Below the pieces are notes generated by a model, which was not told where the DNA came from, searched no databases, and was given only the letters and a program-made list of their open reading frames with translations. A stretch of DNA of 8,342 nt from a virus (taxonomy: Duplodnaviria > Heunggongvirae > Uroviricota > Caudoviricetes), in IMG/VR virus record IMGVR_UViG_2751185968_000009; one strand, written 5' to 3'. Positions 401 to 8,232 of the stretch are shown in pieces. The position numbers and the translations under genes were made by a program. How positions within the stretch are numbered: the first letter of the stretch is position 1; the number at the start of each line of letters is the position of its first letter.

Positions 401-3400
401 ATGGGTAAAGGAAGCAGTAAGGGGCATACCCCGCGCGAAGCGAAGGACAACCTGAAGTCCACGCAGCTGCTGAGTGTGATCGATGCCATCAGCGAAGGGC
501 CGGTTGAAGGTCCGGTGGATGGATTAAAAAGCGTGCTGCTGAACAGTACGCCGGTGCTGGACAGTGAGGGGAATACCAATATATCCGGCGTCACGGTGGT
601 GTTCCGGGCCGGTGAGCAGGAGCAGACACCGCCGGAGGGATTTGAATCCTCCGGCTCCGAGACGGTGCTGGGTACGGAAGTGAAGTACGACACGCCGATT
701 ACCCGGACCATCACGTCGGCAAACATCGACCGTCTGCGCTTTACCTTCGGTGTGCAGGCACTGGTGGAAACCACCTCAAAGGGGGACCGGAATCCGTCGG
801 AAGTCCGCCTGCTGGTTCAGATACAGCGTAATGGTGGCTGGGTGACGGAAAAAGACATCACCATTAAAGGCAAAACCACCTCACAGTATCTAGCATCGGT
901 GGTGGTGGGTAACCTGCCGCCGCGCCCGTTCAATATCCGGATGCGCAGGATGACGCCGGACAGCACCACAGACCAGCTGCAGAACAAAACGCTCTGGTCG
1001 TCATACACCGAAATCATCGATGTGAAACAGTGCTACCCGAACACGGCACTGGTCGGCGTACAGGTGGATTCGGAGCAGTTCGGCAGCCAGCAGGTGAGCC
1101 GTAATTATCATCTGCGCGGGCGTATTCTGCAGGTGCCGTCGAACTATAACCCGCAGACTCGGCAATACAGCGGTATCTGGGACGGAACGTTTAAGCCAGC
1201 ATACAGCAATAACATGGCCTGGTGTCTGTGGGATATGCTGACCCATCCACGCTACGGCATGGGGAAACGTCTTGGTGCGGCGGATGTGGACAAATGGGCG
1301 CTGTATGTCATCGGCCAGTACTGCGACCAGTCAGTGCCGGATGGCTTTGGTGGCACGGAGCCGCGCATCACCTGTAACGCTTACCTGACCACACAGCGTA
1401 AGGCGTGGGATGTGCTCAGTGATTTCTGTTCGGCGATGCGCTGTATGCCGGTATGGAACGGGCAGACGCTGACGTTCGTGCAGGACCGACCGTCGGATAA
1501 GGTGTGGACCTATAACCGCAGTAATGTGGTGATGCCGGATGATGGCGCGCCGTTCCGCTACAGCTTCAGCGCCCTGAAGGACCGCCATAATGCCGTTGAG
1601 GTGAACTGGATTGACCCGGATAACGGCTGGGAGACGGCGACAGAGCTTGTTGAAGATACGCAGGCCATTGCCCGTTACGGTCGTAACGTCACGAAGATGG
1701 ATGCCTTTGGCTGTACCAGCCGGGGGCAGGCACACCGCGCCGGGCTGTGGCTGATTAAAACGGAGCTGCTGGAAACGCAGACCGTGGACTTCAGCGTGGG
1801 TGCAGAAGGGCTTCGCCATGTACCGGGCGATGTCATTGAAATCTGTGATGATGACTATGCCGGTATCAGCATCGGCGGGCGCGTGCTGGCGGTGAACAGC
1901 CAGACGCGGACACTGACGCTCGACCGTGAAATCACGCTGCCATCCTCCGGCACCACGCTGATAAGCCTGGTTGACGGACAGGGGAATCCGGTCAGCGTGG
2001 AGGTCCAGTCCGTCACCGACGGCGTGAAGGTGAAAGTGAGCCGTGTTCCTGACGGCGTTGCCGAATACAGCGTGTGGGGGCTGAAGCTGCCGACGCTGCG
2101 CCAGCGCCTGTTCCGCTGCGTGAGTATCCGTGAGAACGATGGCGGCACGTATGCCATCACCGCCGTGCAGCATGTACCGGAAAAAGAAGCCATCGTGGAT
2201 AACGGGGCGCACTTTGACGCGACCAGAGCGGCACGGTGAATGGTGTCACGCCGCCAGCGGTGCAGCACCTGACTGCCGAAGTCACCGCAGACAGCGGGGA
2301 GTATCAGGTACTGGCCCGCTGGGACACGCCGAAGGTGGTGAAGGGCGTGAGCTTCCTGCTTCGCCTGACCGTGACAGCGGACGATGGCAGTGAGCGGCTG
2401 GTCAGCACGGCCCGGACGACGGAAACCACATACCGCTTCAGGCAGCTGGCGCTGGGGCGTTACATGTTGACGGTCCGGGCGGTAAATGCGTGGGGACAGC
2501 TGGGCGATCCGGCGTCGGTATCGTTCCGGATTGCCGCACCGGCAGCGCCGTCGCGGATTGAGCTGACGCCGGGCTATTTTCAGATAACCGCCACGCCGCA
2601 TCTTGCCGTTTATGACCCGACGGTACAGTTTGAGTTCTGGTTTTCGGAAAAGCGGATTACCGATATCAGGAAGGTTGAAACCACAGCGCGCTATCTTGGC
2701 ACGGGGCTGTACTGGATAGCCGCCAGTATCAATATCAAACCGGGCCATGATTATTATTTTTACGTTCGCAGTGTGAACACCGTTGGCAAATCGGCATTCG
2801 TGGAGGCTGTTGGTCAGCCGAGTGATGATGCATCCGGTTATCTGGATTTTTTCAAAGGCGAGATAGGGAAAACCCATCTGGCTCAGGAGCTGTGGACGCA
2901 GATTGATAACGGTCAGCTTGCGCCTGACCTGGCTGAAATCAGGACGTCCATTAAGGATGTCAGCAATGAAATCACGCAGACCGTCAATAAGAAACTGGAA
3001 GACCAGAGTGCGGCAATTCAGCAGATACAGAAGGTTCAGGTTGATACAAATAATAATCTGAACAGCATGTGGGCTGTGAAGCTGCAACAGATGAAGGACG
3101 GACGCCTTTATATTGCGGGTATCGGTGCCGGTATTGAGAATACGCCAGCAGGAATGCAGAGTCAGGTGCTGCTGGCGGCAGACAGGATTGCGATGATTAA
3201 TCCTGCGAATGGCAACACAAAGCCGATGTTTGTTGGTCAGGGCGATCAGATATTCATGAACGACGTGTTCCTGAAACGCCTGACGGCTCCCACCATTACC
3301 AGCGGCGGTAATCCTCCGGCATTTTCCCTGACACCGGACGGGCGGCTGACGGCGAAAAATGCCGATATTAGCGGTAACGTGAATGCGAACTCCGGGACGC

Positions 3401-3879
3401 TCAACAACGTCACGATTAACGAGAACTGTCGGGTTCTGGGAAAACTGTCCGCCAACCAGATTGAAGGCGATCTCGTTAAAACAGTGGGCAAAGCTTTCCC
3501 CCGGGACTCCCGTGCACCGGAGCGGTGGCCATCAGGGACCATTACCGTCAGGGTTTATGACGATCAGCCGTTTGACCGGCAAATTGTTATTCCGGCGGTG
3601 GCATTCAGTGGCGCTAAGCATGAGAGAGAGCATACTGATATTTACTCCTCATGCCGTCTGATAGTGCGGAAAAACGGTGCTGAAATTTATAACCGTACCG
3701 CGCTGGATAATACGCTGATTTACAGTGGCGTTATTGATATGCCTGCCGGTCACGGTCACATGACACTGGAGTTTTCGGTGTCAGCATGGCTGGTAAATAA
3801 CTGGTATCCCACAGCAAGTATCAGCGATTTGCTGGTTGTGGTGATGAAGAAAGCCACTACAGGCATCACGATTAGCTGA
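401..3879 (+). pseudogene. J: Tail tip / host-specificity protein J (lambda gpJ-like), interrupted by a frameshift near 2219-2223; present as two ORFs, 401..2239 and 2236..3879
   Basis: ORF 401..2239 (612 aa) begins MGKGSSKGHTPREAKDNLKSTQLLSVIDAISEGP and follows the lambda J N-terminal half as I recall it. ORF 2236..3879 (GTG start in the track) continues [36 protein letters not shown], the next part of J, in a different frame. GGAG at 389-392 sits about 9 nt upstream of ATG 401. Confidence 0.85.
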
Positions 3880-3946: not shown

Positions 3947-4546
3947 ATGCGTAAATTATGTGCTGTTATTCTGTCCGCAGTAGTCTGGCTGGTTGCCGCT
4001 GGTATGCCAGCGAGCGCAGCAGAGCATCAGTCCACACTAAGCGCCGGGTATCTTCAGACCCATACTGATATGCCAGGCAGCGATGATCTGAACGGGATTA
4101 ACGTGAAATACCGTTATGAGTTTACGGACACGCTGGGGCTGGTGACGTCATTCAGTTATGCCAATGCCAAAGATGAGCAAAAAACGCATTACAGCGATAC
4201 CCGCTGGCATGAAGATTCCGTGCGTAACCGCTGGTTCAGCGTGATGGCGGGGCCGTCTGTGCGCGTGAATGAATGGTTCAGCGCGTATGCGATGGCGGGT
4301 GTGACTTACAGTCGTGTGTCGACTTTTTCCGGGGATTATCTCCGTGTAACTGACAGCAAGGGGAAAACGCACGATGTGCTGACCGGAAGTGATGACGGTC
4401 GCCACAGCAACACGTCTCTGGCGTGGGGGGCTGGCGTGCAGTTTAACCCGACCGAATCCGTGGCCATTGATATTGCTTATGAAGGCTCCGGCAGTGGTGA
4501 CTGGCGTACCAACAGTTTCATCGTTGGTGTCGGCTATAAATTCTGA
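3947..4546 (+). CDS. lom: Lom, Ail/Lom-family outer-membrane beta-barrel protein (prophage moron)
   Basis: 199-aa ORF with a signal peptide (MRKLCAVILSAVVWLVAAGMPASA, then AEH after an AXA site) and the C-terminal GVGYKF typical of outer-membrane beta-barrels. Blocks such as NGINVKYRYEFTDTLGLVTSFSY and SVAIDIAYEGSGSGDWRT match lambda Lom as I recall it. RBS GAGAGG at 3936-3941. Confidence 0.92.
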   Translation: MRKLCAVILSAVVWLVAAGMPASAAEHQSTLSAGYLQTHTDMPGSDDLNGINVKYRYEFTDTLGLVTSFSYANAKDEQKTHYSDTRWHEDSVRNRWFSVMAGPSVRVNEWFSAYAMAGVTYSRVSTFSGDYLRVTDSKGKTHDVLTGSDDGRHSNTSLAWGAGVQFNPTESVAIDIAYEGSGSGDWRTNSFIVGVGYKF

Positions 4547-4610: not shown

Positions 4611-7259
4611 ATGGCAGTACTGATTTCAGGTGTACTGAAAGATGGTGCAGGTAAGCCGATACAAAACTGCACCATTCAGCTAAAGGCCAGGCGCAACAGC
4701 ACCACGGTGGTGGTGAACACAGTGGCCTCAGAAAATCCGGATGAAGCCGGGCGTTATACAATGGACGTCGAGTATGGTCAGTACAGCGTCAGTCTGTTGG
4801 TGGAGGGATTCCCGCCGTCACACGCCGGGATTATCACCGTATATGAGGACTCAAAGCCGGGCACACTGAATGATTTCCTCGGTGCAATGACGGAGGATGA
4901 TGTCCGGCCAGAGGCACTGCGCCGTTTTGAACTGATGGTGGAAGAGGTGGCGCGTAACGCGTCCGCAGTGGCACAGAACACGGCAGCCGCGAAGAAGTCA
5001 GCCAGCGATGCCCGCACATCAGCCCGTGAGGCGGCAACCCATGCGACTGATGCTGCAGGCTCAGCACGCGCAGCCAGCACGTCAGCCGGACAGGCCGCGT
5101 CGTCGGCTCAGTCAGCGTCTTCCAGCGCAGGAGCGGCATCAACAAAGGCCAGTGAAGCATCGAAAAGTGCTGCTGCTGCAGAGTCCTCAAAAAGCGCGGC
5201 AGCTACCAGTGCCAGTGCCGCGAAAACGTCAGAAACGAATGCGGCAGCGTCACAACAATCAGCAGCCACTTCTGCATCCACCGCGACCACGAAAGCGTCA
5301 GAAGCAGCCACTTCAGCACGGGATGCGTCGGCTTCAAAAGAGGCGGCAAAATCATCAGAAACGAACGCAGCCTCGAGCGCCAGCAGCGCAGCTTCCTCGG
5401 CAACGGCGGCAGCAAATTCTGCGAAGGCGGCAAAAACGTCCGAGACGAACGCCAGGTCTTCTGAAACGGCAGCGGGACAGAGCGCCTCAGCTGCGGCAGA
5501 CTCAAAAACAGCGGCTGCATTATCTGCCAGTGCCGCGTCAACAAGTGCCGGGCAGGCCTCAGCCAGTGCCACCGCCGCCGGAAAATCGGCAGAAAGTGCT
5601 GCATCGTCTGCTTCAACAGCCACAACGAAGGCTGGCGAAGCCGCTGTACAGGCCAGCGCAGCAGCGAGGTCTGCTTCCGCAGCGAAGACATCCGAGACGA
5701 ACGCGAAAGCGTCGGAAACCAGCGCAGAATCCTCAAAAACGGCTGCCGCATCGTCCGCCAGTTCGGCGGCGTCATCGGCATCATCTGCGTCTGCTTCAAA
5801 AGATGAGGCGACCAGACAGGCGTCAGCAGCAAAGGGCAGCGCCACGACGGCATCCACGAAGGCGACAGAGGCAGCTGGCAGTGCGACGGCGGCAGCTCAG
5901 AGCAAAAGTACGGCGGAATCCGCGGCAACGCGCGCTGAGACAGCGGCAAAACGGGCAGAGGATATTGCATCCGCCGTGGCGCTTGAGGATGCGAGCACGA
6001 CGAAAAAGGGGATAGTACAGCTCAGCAGTGCGACTAACAGCACTTCCGAGTCACTGGCGGCAACGCCAAAAGCCGTTAAGGCCGCGTATGAGCTGGCTAA
6101 CGGGAAATACACCGCACAGGATGCAACGACAGCACAGAAAGGGATAGTTCAGCTTAGCAACGCGACCAACAGCACATCTGAAATGCTGGCGGCAACGCCA
6201 AAGTCGGTAAAGGCAGCCTATGACCTTGCTAACGGGAAATATACTGCTCAGGACGCTACGACAGCACAAAAAGGAATTGTCCAGCTCAGTAGTGCAACCA
6301 ACAGCGCATCTGAAACGCTTGCCGCGACACCGAAAGCAGTGAAAGCAGCTAATGATAATGCGAATGGTCGGGTACCTTCTGCCCGTAAGGTGAATGGTAA
6401 GGCGCTTTCAGCGGATATAACACTGACGCCGAAAGATATTGGTACGCTTAACTCAACAACAATGTCATTCAGCGGTGGTGCTGGTTGGTTCAAATTAGCA
6501 ACGGTAACCATGCCACAGGCGAGTTCTGTTGTTTCAATTACGTTGATTGGTGGTGCGGGATTTAACGTGGGGTCACCTCAACAGGCAGGTATATCTGAAC
6601 TTGTTTTGCGTGCAGGTAATGGTAATCCGAAGGGGATTACTGGTGCTTTATGGCAGCGCACATCGACAGGGTTTACAAATTTTGCCTGGGTCAATACATC
6701 TGGTGATACTTACGATATTTACGTTGCAATCGGAAATTATGCGACTGGTGTAAATATTCAATGGGATTATACCAGTAATGCCAGCGTGACGATTCATACG
6801 TCACCAGCATATTCTGCTAATAAGCCGGAAGGGTTAACGGACGGTACAGTTTATTCACTCTATACGCCATCAGAGCAGTTTTATCCGCCTGGCGCACCAA
6901 TCCCGTGGCCATCAGATACCGTTCCGTCTGGCTATGCCCTGATGCAGGGGCAGACTTTTGACAAATCTGCATACCCGAAACTTGCAGCCGCTTATCCGTC
7001 AGGCGTGATCCCTGATATGCGTGGCTGGACGATTAAGGGCAAACCCGCCAGTGGTCGTGCCGTATTGTCTCAGGAACAGGACGGCATTAAATCGCACACC
7101 CACAGCGCCAGCGCATCCAGTACGGATTTGGGGACGAAAAACACATCGTCGTTTGATTACGGAACCAAATCCACGAATAACACCGGGGCGCATACGCACA
7201 GTCTGAGTGGCTCTACGGGGTCTGCCGGTGATCATACTCATGGTAATGGTATTCGTTGA
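4611..7259 (+). CDS. stf: Side tail fibre protein Stf (lambda Stf-like N-terminus, Ala/Ser-rich shaft, tail-collar motif); ends at an in-frame TGA that looks premature
   Basis: 882-aa ORF; the N-terminus [36 protein letters not shown]...[23 protein letters not shown] matches lambda Stf from memory. Contains the motif [48 protein letters not shown], typical of phage tail-collar domains. G-rich RBS at 4602-4607 before ATG 4611. Confidence 0.85.
4950..5990 (+). repeat. Low-complexity Ala/Ser/Thr-rich coding region within stf, with recurring AAKTSETNA-type motifs
   Basis: Stf residues about 115-460 are almost entirely A/S/T/K/E/Q. Motifs recur several times ([70 protein letters not shown]). The stop-poor GCN/TCN-rich DNA generates long spurious ORFs in other frames. 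Confidence 0.7.
5988..6383 (+). repeat. Three tandem in-frame 132-bp (44-aa) repeats within stf; third copy diverges in its 3-prime third
   Basis: The unit DA(S/T)T(T/A)(K/Q)KGIVQLS(S/N)ATNS(T/A)SE(S/M/T)LAATPK(A/S)VKAAY(E/D)LANGKYTAQ starts at 5988, 6120 and 6252. The KG codon pair sits at 6006-6011, 6138-6143 and 6270-6275, exactly 132 nt apart. Copies differ mainly at synonymous positions. Confidence 0.8.
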
Positions 7260-7586
7260 CCAGGAGGCGGCGGTTCTGCGTTAGCATTTTATGATGGCGG
7301 TGGGTTCACTTATGTCCAGGATTCACAGTATCAAGTAAGCCCGGGGACTTCTTCCCGTAGATCGTATTATCAACGTATTCAGACACAGTCAGCAGGTGCT
7401 CATACCCACTCGCTGTCTGGTACTGCAGCAAGTTCTGGCGCACATGCACATACTGTAGGTATTGGTGCGCATACGCACTCCGTTGCGATTGGTTCACATG
7501 GACACACCATCACCGTTAACGCTGCTGGTAACGCGGAAAACACCGTCAAAAACATCGCATTTAACTATATTGTGAGGCTTGCATAA
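7260..7586 (+). other. stf: In-frame continuation of stf beyond TGA 7257-7259, encoding the conserved tail-fibre C-terminus; no start codon of its own
   Basis: Codons 7260..7583 are open in the stf frame and read [108 protein letters not shown], ending at TAA 7584-7586. The last ~25 residues match the lambda Stf C-terminus as I recall it. No in-frame ATG/GTG/TTG with an RBS. Confidence 0.6.
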
Positions 7587-8170
7587 TGGCATTCAGAATG
7601 AGTGAACAAGCACGGACCATAAAAATTTATAATCTGCTGGCCGGAACTAATGAATTTATTGGTGAAGGTGACGCATATATTCCGCCTCATACAGGTCTGC
7701 CAGCAAACAGTACCGATATTGCACCACCAGATATTCCTGCTGGCTTTGTGGCTGTTTTCAACAGTGATGAGGCATCGTGGCATCTCGTTGAAGACCATCG
7801 GGGTAAAACGGTTTATGACGTAGCGTCAGGGGACGAGTTATTTATTTCTGAACTCGGTCCGTTACCGGAAAATGTTACCTGGTTATCGCCGGAAGGGGAG
7901 TTTCAGAAGTGGAACGGCACAGCCTGGGTGAAGGATACGGAAGCAGAAAAAATGTTCCGGATCCGGGAGGCGGAAGAAACAAAAAACAACCTGATGCAGG
8001 TAGCCAGTGAGCATATTGCGCCGCTTCAGGATGCTGCAGATCTGGAAATTGCAACGGAGGAAGAAACCTCATTGCTGGAAGCCTGGAAAAAGTATCGGGT
8101 GTTGCTGAACCGTGTTGATACATCAACTGCACCTGATATTGAGTGGCCTACGAACCCTGTCAGGGAGTAA
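7586..8170 (+). CDS. tfa: Tail fibre assembly protein Tfa (lambda Tfa-like chaperone)
   Basis: 194-aa [82 protein letters not shown]..., nearly residue-for-residue with lambda Tfa as I recall it. Its ATG (7586-7588) overlaps the TAA (7584-7586) of the stf frame as TAATG. Confidence 0.93.
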
Positions 8171-8184
8171 TCATTGGGATTATG

Positions 8185-8232
8185 CCGCAGCACGTCTTAA
8201 GCAAGAACGTGCTGCGGTTGGATGCTATTTTT
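8185..8232 (+). other. Perfect 11-bp inverted repeat with 11-nt spacer after tfa, followed by a T-tract; possible terminator or protein-binding palindrome
   Basis: CCGCAGCACGT (8185-8195) and ACGTGCTGCGG (8207-8217) are exact reverse complements; T6 run at 8227-8232 lies about 9 nt past the stem, which is atypical spacing for an intrinsic terminator. Confidence 0.35.

Follow-up and report, generated by a model that had tools for sequence, protein, structure and literature searches.

Introduction

Tail fibre genes are mosaics, and within this familiar biology the repeat described here is an ordinary, already catalogued feature. Phage_fiber_2, the 'Pf2' of Ghosh et al. 2012 (PMC3368898), is a family of ~40-residue phage tail-fibre repeats that was first noted in lambda Stf and also occurs in StfR, and the same paper describes the shaft region equivalent to that of the present gene as PCoil, a putative coiled coil. 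We found no later account of the Phage_fiber_2 fold in the literature since Ghosh et al. 2012, and neither the Gifsy-1 Stf paper nor the T4/lambda RBP-family paper mentions the repeat. Horizontal exchange of fibre genes has its classic accounts in Haggard-Ljungquist 1992 and Sandmeier 1994 (both as cited in PMC3945230), and experiments have demonstrated that lambda stf recombines with prophage stf genes (PMC3945230).

Lambda Stf carries a single unit at aa 355–394, as an earlier note on this DNA had stated, and K-12 StfR also has one. The window analysed here, a stretch of 8,342 nucleotides from the IMG/VR virus record IMGVR_UViG_2751185968_000009, encodes a side tail fibre with three.

Results and Discussion

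The stf gene and its surroundings

The source of the window is a decaying lambda-like prophage of E. coli. Its open reading frames give the gene order J (401–3879), lom (3947–4546), stf (from 4611) and tfa (7586–8170), and the same J-lom-stf-tfa order occurs in the annotation of a 99.96% identical locus (L001) and in the lambda record. The features needed below are:

4611–7259, + strand: stf (side tail fibre) open reading frame, 882 codons and a premature TGA (ORF list, translation)
4611–5012, + strand: N-terminal prophage tail-fibre domain (PF08400, E=1.1e-71; aa 1–134, full model length)
5013–5987, + strand: Ala/Ser/Thr-rich proximal shaft (translation), with short repeats at multiples of 21 nt (heptads)
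5988–6383, + strand: three in-frame 132-bp units (aa 460–591 of the stf reading frame)
5988–6119, + strand: repeat unit 1 (aa 460–503), Phage_fiber_2 core and linker
6120–6251, + strand: repeat unit 2 (aa 504–547), internal unit that looks chimeric
6252–6383, + strand: repeat unit 3 (aa 548–591), terminal unit travelling with the distal module
6384–7256, + strand: distal receptor-binding module: a Collar domain, a His-rich region like the T4 gp37 tip, and a beta-rich part without domain assignment
7257–7259, + strand: premature stop TGA (TGG>TGA relative to NZ_CP019005, locus L001), with loss of the last 109 fibre-tip residues
7586–8170, + strand: tfa, tail fibre assembly chaperone (PHROG 105, tail fiber assembly, E=1.2e-100; L001 annotation)

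The protein has the hallmarks of a lambda-type Stf, namely the PF08400 N-terminus, a position after J and lom and before tfa, and a gp37-related His-rich tip, with the exception of an intact frame: it ends at 882 aa, compared with 991 aa in intact relatives, whose stf continues to position 7586, where tfa starts. No complete E. coli genome matches the stretch around the TGA above 99.0% (one mismatch), and J upstream also has a 1-bp deletion. The Pfam order along Stf is PF08400, three copies of PF03406, PF07484 and PF03335. The N-terminal domain (aa 1–134), with a presumed role in tail attachment, is 87–100% identical across 80 IMG/VR loci, and the shaft contains short-repeat families (D2–D6) with spacings that include 231, 126, 84, 21, 21, 210 and 105 nt. 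In the distal module, the Collar domain (PF07484) occupies aa 761–808 (nt 6891–7034), the gp37-tip-like His-rich region spans aa 744–877 (nt 6840–7241; match to PDB 2xgf, E=2.8e-60), and PF03335 matches at aa 856–869.

A tandem array of three Phage_fiber_2 units

The earlier note had described three in-frame 132-bp tandem units in the Stf fibre, and three lines of evidence bear this out. Tandem Repeats Finder reports an array at 6004–6349 (period 132, 2.6 copies, 78% matches, 0 indels, score 398), a separate repeat search of the window returns three 132-nt copies at 5986–6381 with spacings of 132 and 132, and Pfam finds the domain three times. In the stf reading frame a codon begins at position 5988, so that 5988–6383 holds exactly three units of 44 codons. 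Against Stf, PF03406 scores 173.2 bits (gathering cut-off 22; E=7e-52) over three matched stretches, which places the array far beyond chance; the best stretch is aa 462–502, and each of the three spans the model from end to end (positions 1–41 of 42). No NCBIfam family matched. With three units at an exact 44-residue spacing in a tail fibre protein, the array conforms to the description of the family as a ~40-residue repeat. Identity among units from unrelated fibres does not fall below ~70%, and the matches listed among homologous proteins include arrays of up to 6 units at 44- and 56-residue spacing, although most of the best of these homologues are incomplete proteins from contig ends, no longer than 350 aa.

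In each unit a highly conserved core of ~31 residues precedes a linker of 13 residues. The final 11 codons of unit 3 resemble the inter-unit linker only loosely, and clear repeat similarity ends near 6350. Pairwise, units 1 and 2 share 76.5% of nucleotides and 37/44 residues, units 1 and 3 share 60.6% and 31/44, and units 2 and 3 share 68.2% and 33/44, so that identity ranges over 70–84% for protein versus 61–77% for DNA. The observation that the copies differ at many third codon positions while the peptide stays similar also holds on quantification: third positions account for 24/31 (units 1–2), 36/52 (1–3) and 27/42 (2–3) of the nucleotide differences, and Nei-Gojobori estimates between units are pS 0.69–1.0 and pN 0.09–0.19. 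Synonymous sites between units are saturated, and the protein sequence of the repeat core is subject to strong purifying selection. The longest identical runs between window units are 17, 8 and 11 nt.

Relatives of the individual units

Among other stf alleles, the three units have different relatives. Unit 1 has counterparts of 97–99% nucleotide identity as the opening unit in many of them, and unit 3 has counterparts of 96–100% identity as the closing unit in alleles of 2, 3, 4 and 5 units that share the distal module of the window. The first 99 nt of unit 2 are 90–91% identical to the last unit of three 2-unit alleles (L039, L011 and L015), which carry a distal module other than that of the window, and its final 33 nt show 94% identity to the linker in the first unit of the L013 allele. 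These comparisons show each window unit to be a separate, old sequence lineage with counterparts in other alleles, and unit 2 looks like a chimera produced by out-of-register recombination between alleles. Since the head and tail of unit 2 have different nearest relatives, the array looks assembled by recombination between units that had already diverged. Within the sample, unit 2 has no relative closer than 90–94% identity, which indicates that the proposed exchange is not recent or that the true donors lie outside the sample. Hybrids also occur among single units: those of L044, L065 and L007 are of the unit-1 type for their first 43–56 nt and of the terminal-unit type thereafter. Composition changes stepwise as well, with GC3 of 0.64 in unit 1, 0.50 in unit 2, 0.36 in unit 3 and 0.43 in the distal module, and with total GC dropping from 0.62 to 0.45 along the array. 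GC3 tracks the flanking modules, and this trend on its own accounts for much of the difference between units 1 and 3.

Copy number and spread of alleles

Copy number was counted in 64 complete stf genes that share their N-terminus, including the window and L001, using hmmsearch with --max and a cross-check by regular expression. It ranges from 0 to 5 (0 units in 20 genes, 1 in 25, 2 in 11, 3 in 6, 4 in 1 and 5 in 1), frequencies that are only indicative because the IMG/VR sample is redundant and not random. The distal module of the window occurs with 1, 2, 3, 4 and 5 units, including a series of 942, 986 and 1030 aa, and the AEKRLQKD module and the lambda-type VMDETNKK module each occur with 1 and 2. 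The variation in copy number across homologues that the earlier note anticipated is thus present, and the uniform copy number that would have spoken against it is not what the homologues show. Copy number also varies among E. coli genomes, where matches to a 501-base query span 501, 369 or 237 bases.

Unit 2, a marker of the window allele, is present at 95% identity or more in ~950 records among 5,426 complete E. coli genomes, O157:H7 EDL933 among them, and the window-type allele has three units in every full-length match sampled (~17). A different kind of array is found in L006, L038, L074, L077 and L008, where internal units are 89–100% identical to each other or to unit 1 and exact identical runs reach 53–132 nt; the array of L008 contains three 100% identical units. 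In the other three-unit alleles (L006, L038 and L074), unit 2 is 89–92% like unit 1 and quite unlike unit 2 of the window, which implies that three-unit arrays arose more than once. Judged from these comparisons, there appear to be two ways in which arrays gain units: recent tandem copying and out-of-register exchange between diverged alleles.

A point of non-colinearity and a model of exchange

Colinear homology between the window and other stf genes stops inside the array in 54/59 loci, with ends at 6064–6121 in 36 loci (32 of them at 6079–6092), at 6214–6235 in 14, at 6355 in 2 and, in one further locus, at 6013 early in unit 1. The position of these ends inside a unit is usually much the same, and some of the ends reflect differences in copy number, not different distal modules. 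The alignments show the repeat to be the place where stf alleles stop being colinear.

We propose, with a probability of roughly 65%, that the array is a tandem of Phage_fiber_2 units between the shaft and an exchangeable distal module and that it was formed by recombination between alleles, as follows. The conserved core would provide a shared stretch for homologous recombination between different stf alleles. In-register exchange at the core would swap the distal module, and out-of-register exchange between the last unit of one allele and the first unit of another would add a unit; the latter would be the most likely origin of the three-unit array and its chimeric unit 2. Units would be lost by exchange between a first and a last unit, and such loss could leave the single hybrid units seen elsewhere, which could be collapse products of this kind or in-register recombinants of two single-unit alleles. 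Once formed, the array of the window should be recombinationally quiet, because 17 bases is the longest identical run between any two of its units; this expected stability, judged from the run lengths and the ~17 full-length matches, fits the wide and uniform distribution of the allele.

Alternative explanations

The earlier note had offered two explanations for the silent divergence, old duplications and selection against recombinational collapse. In the simplest form of the former, one unit was duplicated twice in place and drifted silently under conservation of the peptide, without allele exchange. Saturated synonymous sites in a conserved protein are what such a triplication would leave, and units 1 and 2 do share more codons than random back-translation predicts (20 versus 13–14.5; P about 0.01–0.03). 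However, counterparts of units 1 and 3 at 97–100% identity occur both in alleles of 2, 4 and 5 units and in hybrid single units, so that the divergence of the units predates the array of the window. Unit 2 also switches its nearest relative along its length, the unit 2 of L006, L038 and L074 is unlike it, and the stepwise GC3 of the units matches the flanking modules. The lineages are old, yet their history is not simply that of triplication in place, which we consider improbable. Selection on the silent sites themselves, whereby identical arrays collapse and codons are driven apart or only diverged arrays persist, has about the same low standing. Efficient RecA-dependent exchange in E. coli usually needs roughly 23–27 bp, and the 17-base maximum between window units lies below that length. 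Alleles with identical runs of 53–132 nt have copy numbers from 3 to 5, and the diverged allele is widespread with three units in each full-length match. The number of identical residues encoded by the same codon was set against random back-translation, using three models of codon usage. For units 1 and 3 this number is 6 where 10.3–11.2 are expected, a deficit that reaches only P=0.06 (6 versus 10.3) under module-specific codon usage and concerns one comparison of three; units 2 and 3 are at expectation and units 1 and 2 are more alike than random. No robust deficit thus emerged across the three unit pairs and three models, and selection against collapse finds no significant backing in the codons. 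Moreover, the unit lineages predate the array, so the divergence need not have arisen within it, and arrays with three 100% identical units exist, as in L008. Differential survival of diverged arrays is plausible, but would be a passive filter and not codon selection.

A further mechanism, site-specific exchange by a Gin/Cin/Pin-type invertase at crossover sites in fibre genes of the kind put forward for P1, Mu, p15B and e14, is very unlikely here. Related loci do have pinR just downstream of tfaR, and the unit of Mu protein S sits in the first third of the protein (residues 111–154 of 504), which we take to be the constant part upstream of the invertible segment. Fibre-associated invertases have been credited with the old exchange of fibre genes among unrelated phages (Sandmeier 1994, as cited in PMC3945230). 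Nevertheless, a relaxed Gin/Hin-type crossover pattern gave 0 matches in the window with up to 3 mismatches, and the window contains no invertase or recombinase ORF and no significant inverted repeat in or around the array; an invertase system would have a 26-bp crossover site in the fibre gene and an invertase gene nearby. The junctions, in addition, are scattered over ~30 nt at unit ends and do not share one fixed position. A search of the window for a Gin/Pin-type crossover site and for a Chi site found neither.

The allele-recombination model could be extended, though we regard the extension as doubtful: beyond its role as a structural segment, the core may be a near-invariant 'universal joint', a recombination landing pad for the exchange of receptor-binding modules across siphovirus and myovirus fibres, with arrays as by-products of which only the codon-diverged ones persist. 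If this were true, selection would act on the evolvability and the recombinational stability of a host-range gene.

Structural and practical aspects

An AlphaFold2 monomer prediction of aa 440–640 from a 22-sequence alignment reached a mean pLDDT of only 34.5 (pTM 0.25) for what is a single chain of a presumed intertwined trimer. Sequence and profile searches of the PDB returned Mu protein S as the only solved protein that carries the repeat; weak matches to designed armadillo proteins and to IbpA were dismissed as chance. We infer the fold and the length contributed per unit, and it is reasonable to infer that copy number alters fibre length: an extra unit would probably form one more short structural segment in the trimer and lengthen the fibre between shaft and tip.

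The array opens no new question, and its value is one of detail, namely the core as the point of non-colinearity, the copy number of 0–5 and the two routes of growth. When chimeric lambda-type fibres are built to retarget phages or delivery particles, a natural fusion point lies where a unit core ends, and unit number is a natural design variable; the main text of a Nature 2024 paper on chimeric Stf does not give its fusion points. The repeat also explains frequent short-read assembly breaks in stf-type genes.

Comparison with known fibres

With respect to the Phage_fiber_2 family, nothing essential is different here, apart from three copies instead of the one in lambda and K-12 StfR. Among the closest described systems is lambda Stf (orf-401/orf-314 in lambda PaPa) with Tfa, which shares the gene order, a homologous N-terminal domain and Ala/Ser-rich shaft, the placement of Phage_fiber_2 at the junction of shaft and distal part, and the likeness of the tip to T4 gp37. 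In the lambda protein a single unit precedes VVMDETNRKAPL and a middle part unlike that of the window, which has three units and another module; nucleotide homology between the two ends at 6081, inside unit 1, and the window gene differs further in being cut by a nonsense codon.

Outside lambda-type fibres, Mu tail fibre protein S (gp49; PDB 5yvq, 8ju3 and 9ki1) has one unit at residues 111–154 (E=5e-21), matched by unit 3 over residues 101–157 in one search and 111–154 in another, and P2-H-like proteins with a PF12571 N-terminus (P0008 and P0016) have 3–4 or more units at 44-residue spacing. The unit is therefore common to siphovirus and myovirus fibres. Fibres of the Mu S and P2 H type differ from the window Stf in their N-terminal attachment domains and distal domains, and the window lacks the invertible G segment that takes part in exchange in Mu. 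Other lambdoid stf alleles of 2, 3, 4 or 5 units (among them L026, L006, L077 and L008) share with the window the N-terminus, the first and last units (97–100% in nucleotides) and the distal module. Their internal units are recent copies, 89–100% identical to each other or to unit 1 and with long identical runs, whereas the internal unit of the window, at 77% and 68% identity to its neighbours, is of different ancestry.

Three copies of a known tail-fibre repeat

The tandem repeat in the side tail fibre gene (stf) of the window is real and correctly described but ordinary: it is a known tail-fibre repeat in threefold copy, and hundreds of sequenced genomes already contain this allele. The window represents the tail end of a lambda-like E. 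coli prophage; from 349 to its end, it is 99.96% identical to a prophage of E. coli strain Ecol_AZ155 (NZ_CP019005; locus L001) whose neighbours are the trp operon and a truncated ompW gene. Four Pfam families were recognized in the stf product.

Genes, repeat units and Pfam matches
401-3879, J
3947-4546, lom
4611-7259, stf
5988-6119, unit 1, Stf residues 460-503
6120-6251, unit 2, Stf residues 504-547
6252-6383, unit 3, Stf residues 548-591
7586-8170, tfa, tail fibre assembly gene
Stf residues 1-134, PF08400, prophage tail fibre N-terminal domain
Three stretches of Stf, PF03406, Phage_fiber_2 (E=7e-52)
6891-7034, Collar domain
One repeat of Stf, PF03335

Tandem Repeats Finder placed the array at 6004-6349 (period 132, 2.6 copies, 78% matches, no indels), and a second repeat search found three 132-nt copies at 5986-6381; since 5988 is a codon start of stf, 5988-6383 holds exactly three in-frame 44-codon units. 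Units 1-2, 1-3 and 2-3 are, respectively, 84, 70 and 75% identical in protein and 77, 61 and 68% identical in DNA, with third positions accounting for 24 of 31, 36 of 52 and 27 of 42 differences and a between-unit pS of 0.69-1.0 against pN of 0.09-0.19. The earlier note's account of three in-frame 132-bp units diverged at third positions therefore stands as written. In unit 3, the final 11 codons bear only a loose likeness to the inter-unit linker, the stretch following the conserved Phage_fiber_2 core.

Because Pfam matches the units to PF03406, the repeat belongs to a catalogued family, named Pf2 by Ghosh et al. 2012, first seen in lambda Stf, of little-known structure and function at that time, and read by those authors as a globular node lying between the stalks of shadowed molecules (PMC3368898). 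P2-H-type fibres contain the unit as well, and it matches dozens of PHROG tail-fibre families; among PDB sequences, only Mu tail fibre protein S has it (residues 111-154, E=5e-21). An AF2 monomer model of residues 440-640 was unreliable (mean pLDDT 34.5). Each unit may add a serial trimeric segment, and hence fibre length. Beyond the array, the distal region (6840-7241), which includes His-x-His repeats, closely resembles the receptor-binding tip of gp37 from the T4 long tail fibre (PDB 2xgf, E=2.8e-60). Upstream, the Ala/Ser/Thr-rich shaft (4986-5870) contains several families of short imperfect repeats spaced mostly at multiples of 21 nt (heptads), a spacing that fits the putative coiled coil (PCoil) reported in related prophage fibre proteins.

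Copy number among related alleles

Units were counted in 80 fetched IMG/VR loci whose product shares the N-terminal domain, using an HMM of the window units and a regular expression as cross-check. The 64 complete genes, including the window and L001, carry none (20 genes), one (25), two (11), three (6), four (1) or five (1), so that copy number varies from 0 to 5, and the refuting case set by the earlier note, a uniform count among homologues, does not apply. The window-type distal module, the exchangeable receptor-binding part 3' of the array, was found with 1, 2, 3, 4 and 5 units, including a clean length series of 942/986/1030 residues; the AEKRLQKD (StfR-type) and VMDETNKK (lambda-type) modules each have alleles with 1 and 2 units. 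Complete E. coli genomes searched with a 501-base query across the array gave spans of 501, 369 and 237 bases, i.e. three, two and one unit. Unit 2 occurs at ≥95% identity in ~950 records (5,426 complete genomes), among them O157:H7 EDL933, 55989, and O103 and O145 strains, and three units were present in all 14 sampled full-length matches at 98-100% identity in complete E. coli genomes, and in three further ones at ~94%.

Partial proteins of other fibres reach six units, at 44- and 56-residue spacing. Two of these (P0001 and P0003, on contigs of ~95-97 kb) are six-unit fragments almost wholly of repeat, in which 44-residue units alternate with a 56-residue variant with linker AGKAPSSHTHPWNQITGVPTASLTAKG; the end of P0003 is repeat DNA translated in another frame. 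Most database matches are labelled partial, which suggests that assemblies break at repeat arrays.

The repeat as a module junction

When the window stf was aligned to every fetched locus, colinear homology broke off within the array in 54 of 59 cases. The ends fall at 6064-6121 in 36 loci (32 of these at 6079-6092), at 6214-6235 in 14, and at 6355 in two, about the last third of a unit; one locus departs from this, its homology ending near the start of unit 1 (6013). Searches of E. coli genomes gave the same end points. Across the array, GC drops from the shaft (0.62) to the distal module (~0.45), and GC3 of units 1, 2 and 3 (0.64, 0.50 and 0.36) is in line with their neighbours (proximal 0.61, distal 0.43). 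The window contains no invertase crossover site or Chi site, and no notable inverted repeat was found in or around the array; the mechanism is therefore likely to be ordinary homologous recombination on the conserved core. Lambda stf does recombine experimentally with prophage stf genes (PMC3945230).

Origin and stability of the array

In other multi-unit alleles, first and last units always share only ~60-66% DNA identity, and internal units match each other or unit 1 at 89-100%. The five-unit L008 (residues 362-581; its three internal units 100% identical) and the four-unit L077 (residues 460-635) are recent tandem expansions, unlike the diverged window array, because their internal units are 98-100% identical in DNA. 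Many alleles have a first unit with 97-99% identity to window unit 1, and all alleles with the window-type distal module have a last unit with 96-100% identity to window unit 3. Window unit 2 departs from the pattern of the other arrays, sharing 77% and 68% identity with its neighbours. Over its first 99 nt it is nearest (90-91%) to the last unit of two-unit alleles with a different distal module (L039, L011 and L015), and over its last 33 nt (94%) to the first-unit linker of L013. The simplest reading is that unit 2 is chimeric through homologous exchange out of register, in which one allele's last unit would pair with the first unit of a two-unit allele, yielding three units with a chimeric middle one. 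Single units in L044, L065 and L007 are of unit-1 type over their first 43-56 nt and terminal-unit type thereafter, and are thus recombinants within the unit. Middle units in L006, L038 and L074 are recent and unit-1-like, and three-unit arrays have arisen at least twice.

Silent divergence was evaluated by counting identical codons at residues shared between units against random back-translation. With window codon usage, units 1-2 share 20 codons versus 14.5 expected, and are more alike than random; units 2-3 share 11 versus 12.7, and units 1-3 share 6 versus 11.2 (P=0.03, uncorrected). When unit 1 is given proximal usage and unit 3 distal usage, the expectation for units 1-3 is 10.3, against the 6 observed. 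The counts give no robust evidence of codons being driven apart, nor of significant hyper-divergence, and selection for silent divergence, raised in the earlier note as a guard against recombinational collapse, is not borne out (the deficit, in units 1-3 only, has P=0.06 with module-specific usage). RecA-dependent exchange in E. coli requires a minimum of ~23-27 bp of homology. As the longest identical runs between window units (17, 8 and 11 bases) fall below this, the array should be stable; alleles with variable copy number share identical runs of 53-132 bases. Diverged arrays may plausibly have survived passively.

State of the prophage

Relative to Ecol_AZ155, a TGG>TGA change at 7257-7259 shortens the stf product from 991 to 882 residues, removing the last 109 and with them the end of the gp37-like tip, and a 1-bp deletion at ~2219 (GACGGCG > GAC-GCG) splits J into ORFs 401-2239 and 2236-3879. 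Neither lesion was found in any complete E. coli genome searched; the best match over either is 99.0%, one difference per 101 bases. Positions 1 to ~360 form the terminal part of an IS3-family insertion sequence (97-98% identity, up to 50 places per genome), which replaces tail genes and abuts the region just upstream of J. Given these three features, which together suggest a decaying prophage, that of the source strain is probably defective, unless sequencing errors account for the lesions. The repeat array itself matches intact alleles at 100% identity. In the reference prophage, a second tail fibre assembly gene, a fragmentary one, lies ~900 bp further on (L001 12355-12569); the 3' end of tfa together with the flank downstream of it (8005-8219) is 89% identical to this gene, which has the look of a relic from an earlier exchange of fibre modules.

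Comparison with known fibres

Lambda Stf has one unit (residues 355-394), as the earlier note had stated, and K-12 StfR also has one, versus three in the window Stf. The details added here, namely the core as a junction, two routes of array growth, a chimeric middle unit and codons without significant hyper-divergence, agree with the established picture of tail fibre genes as mosaics.
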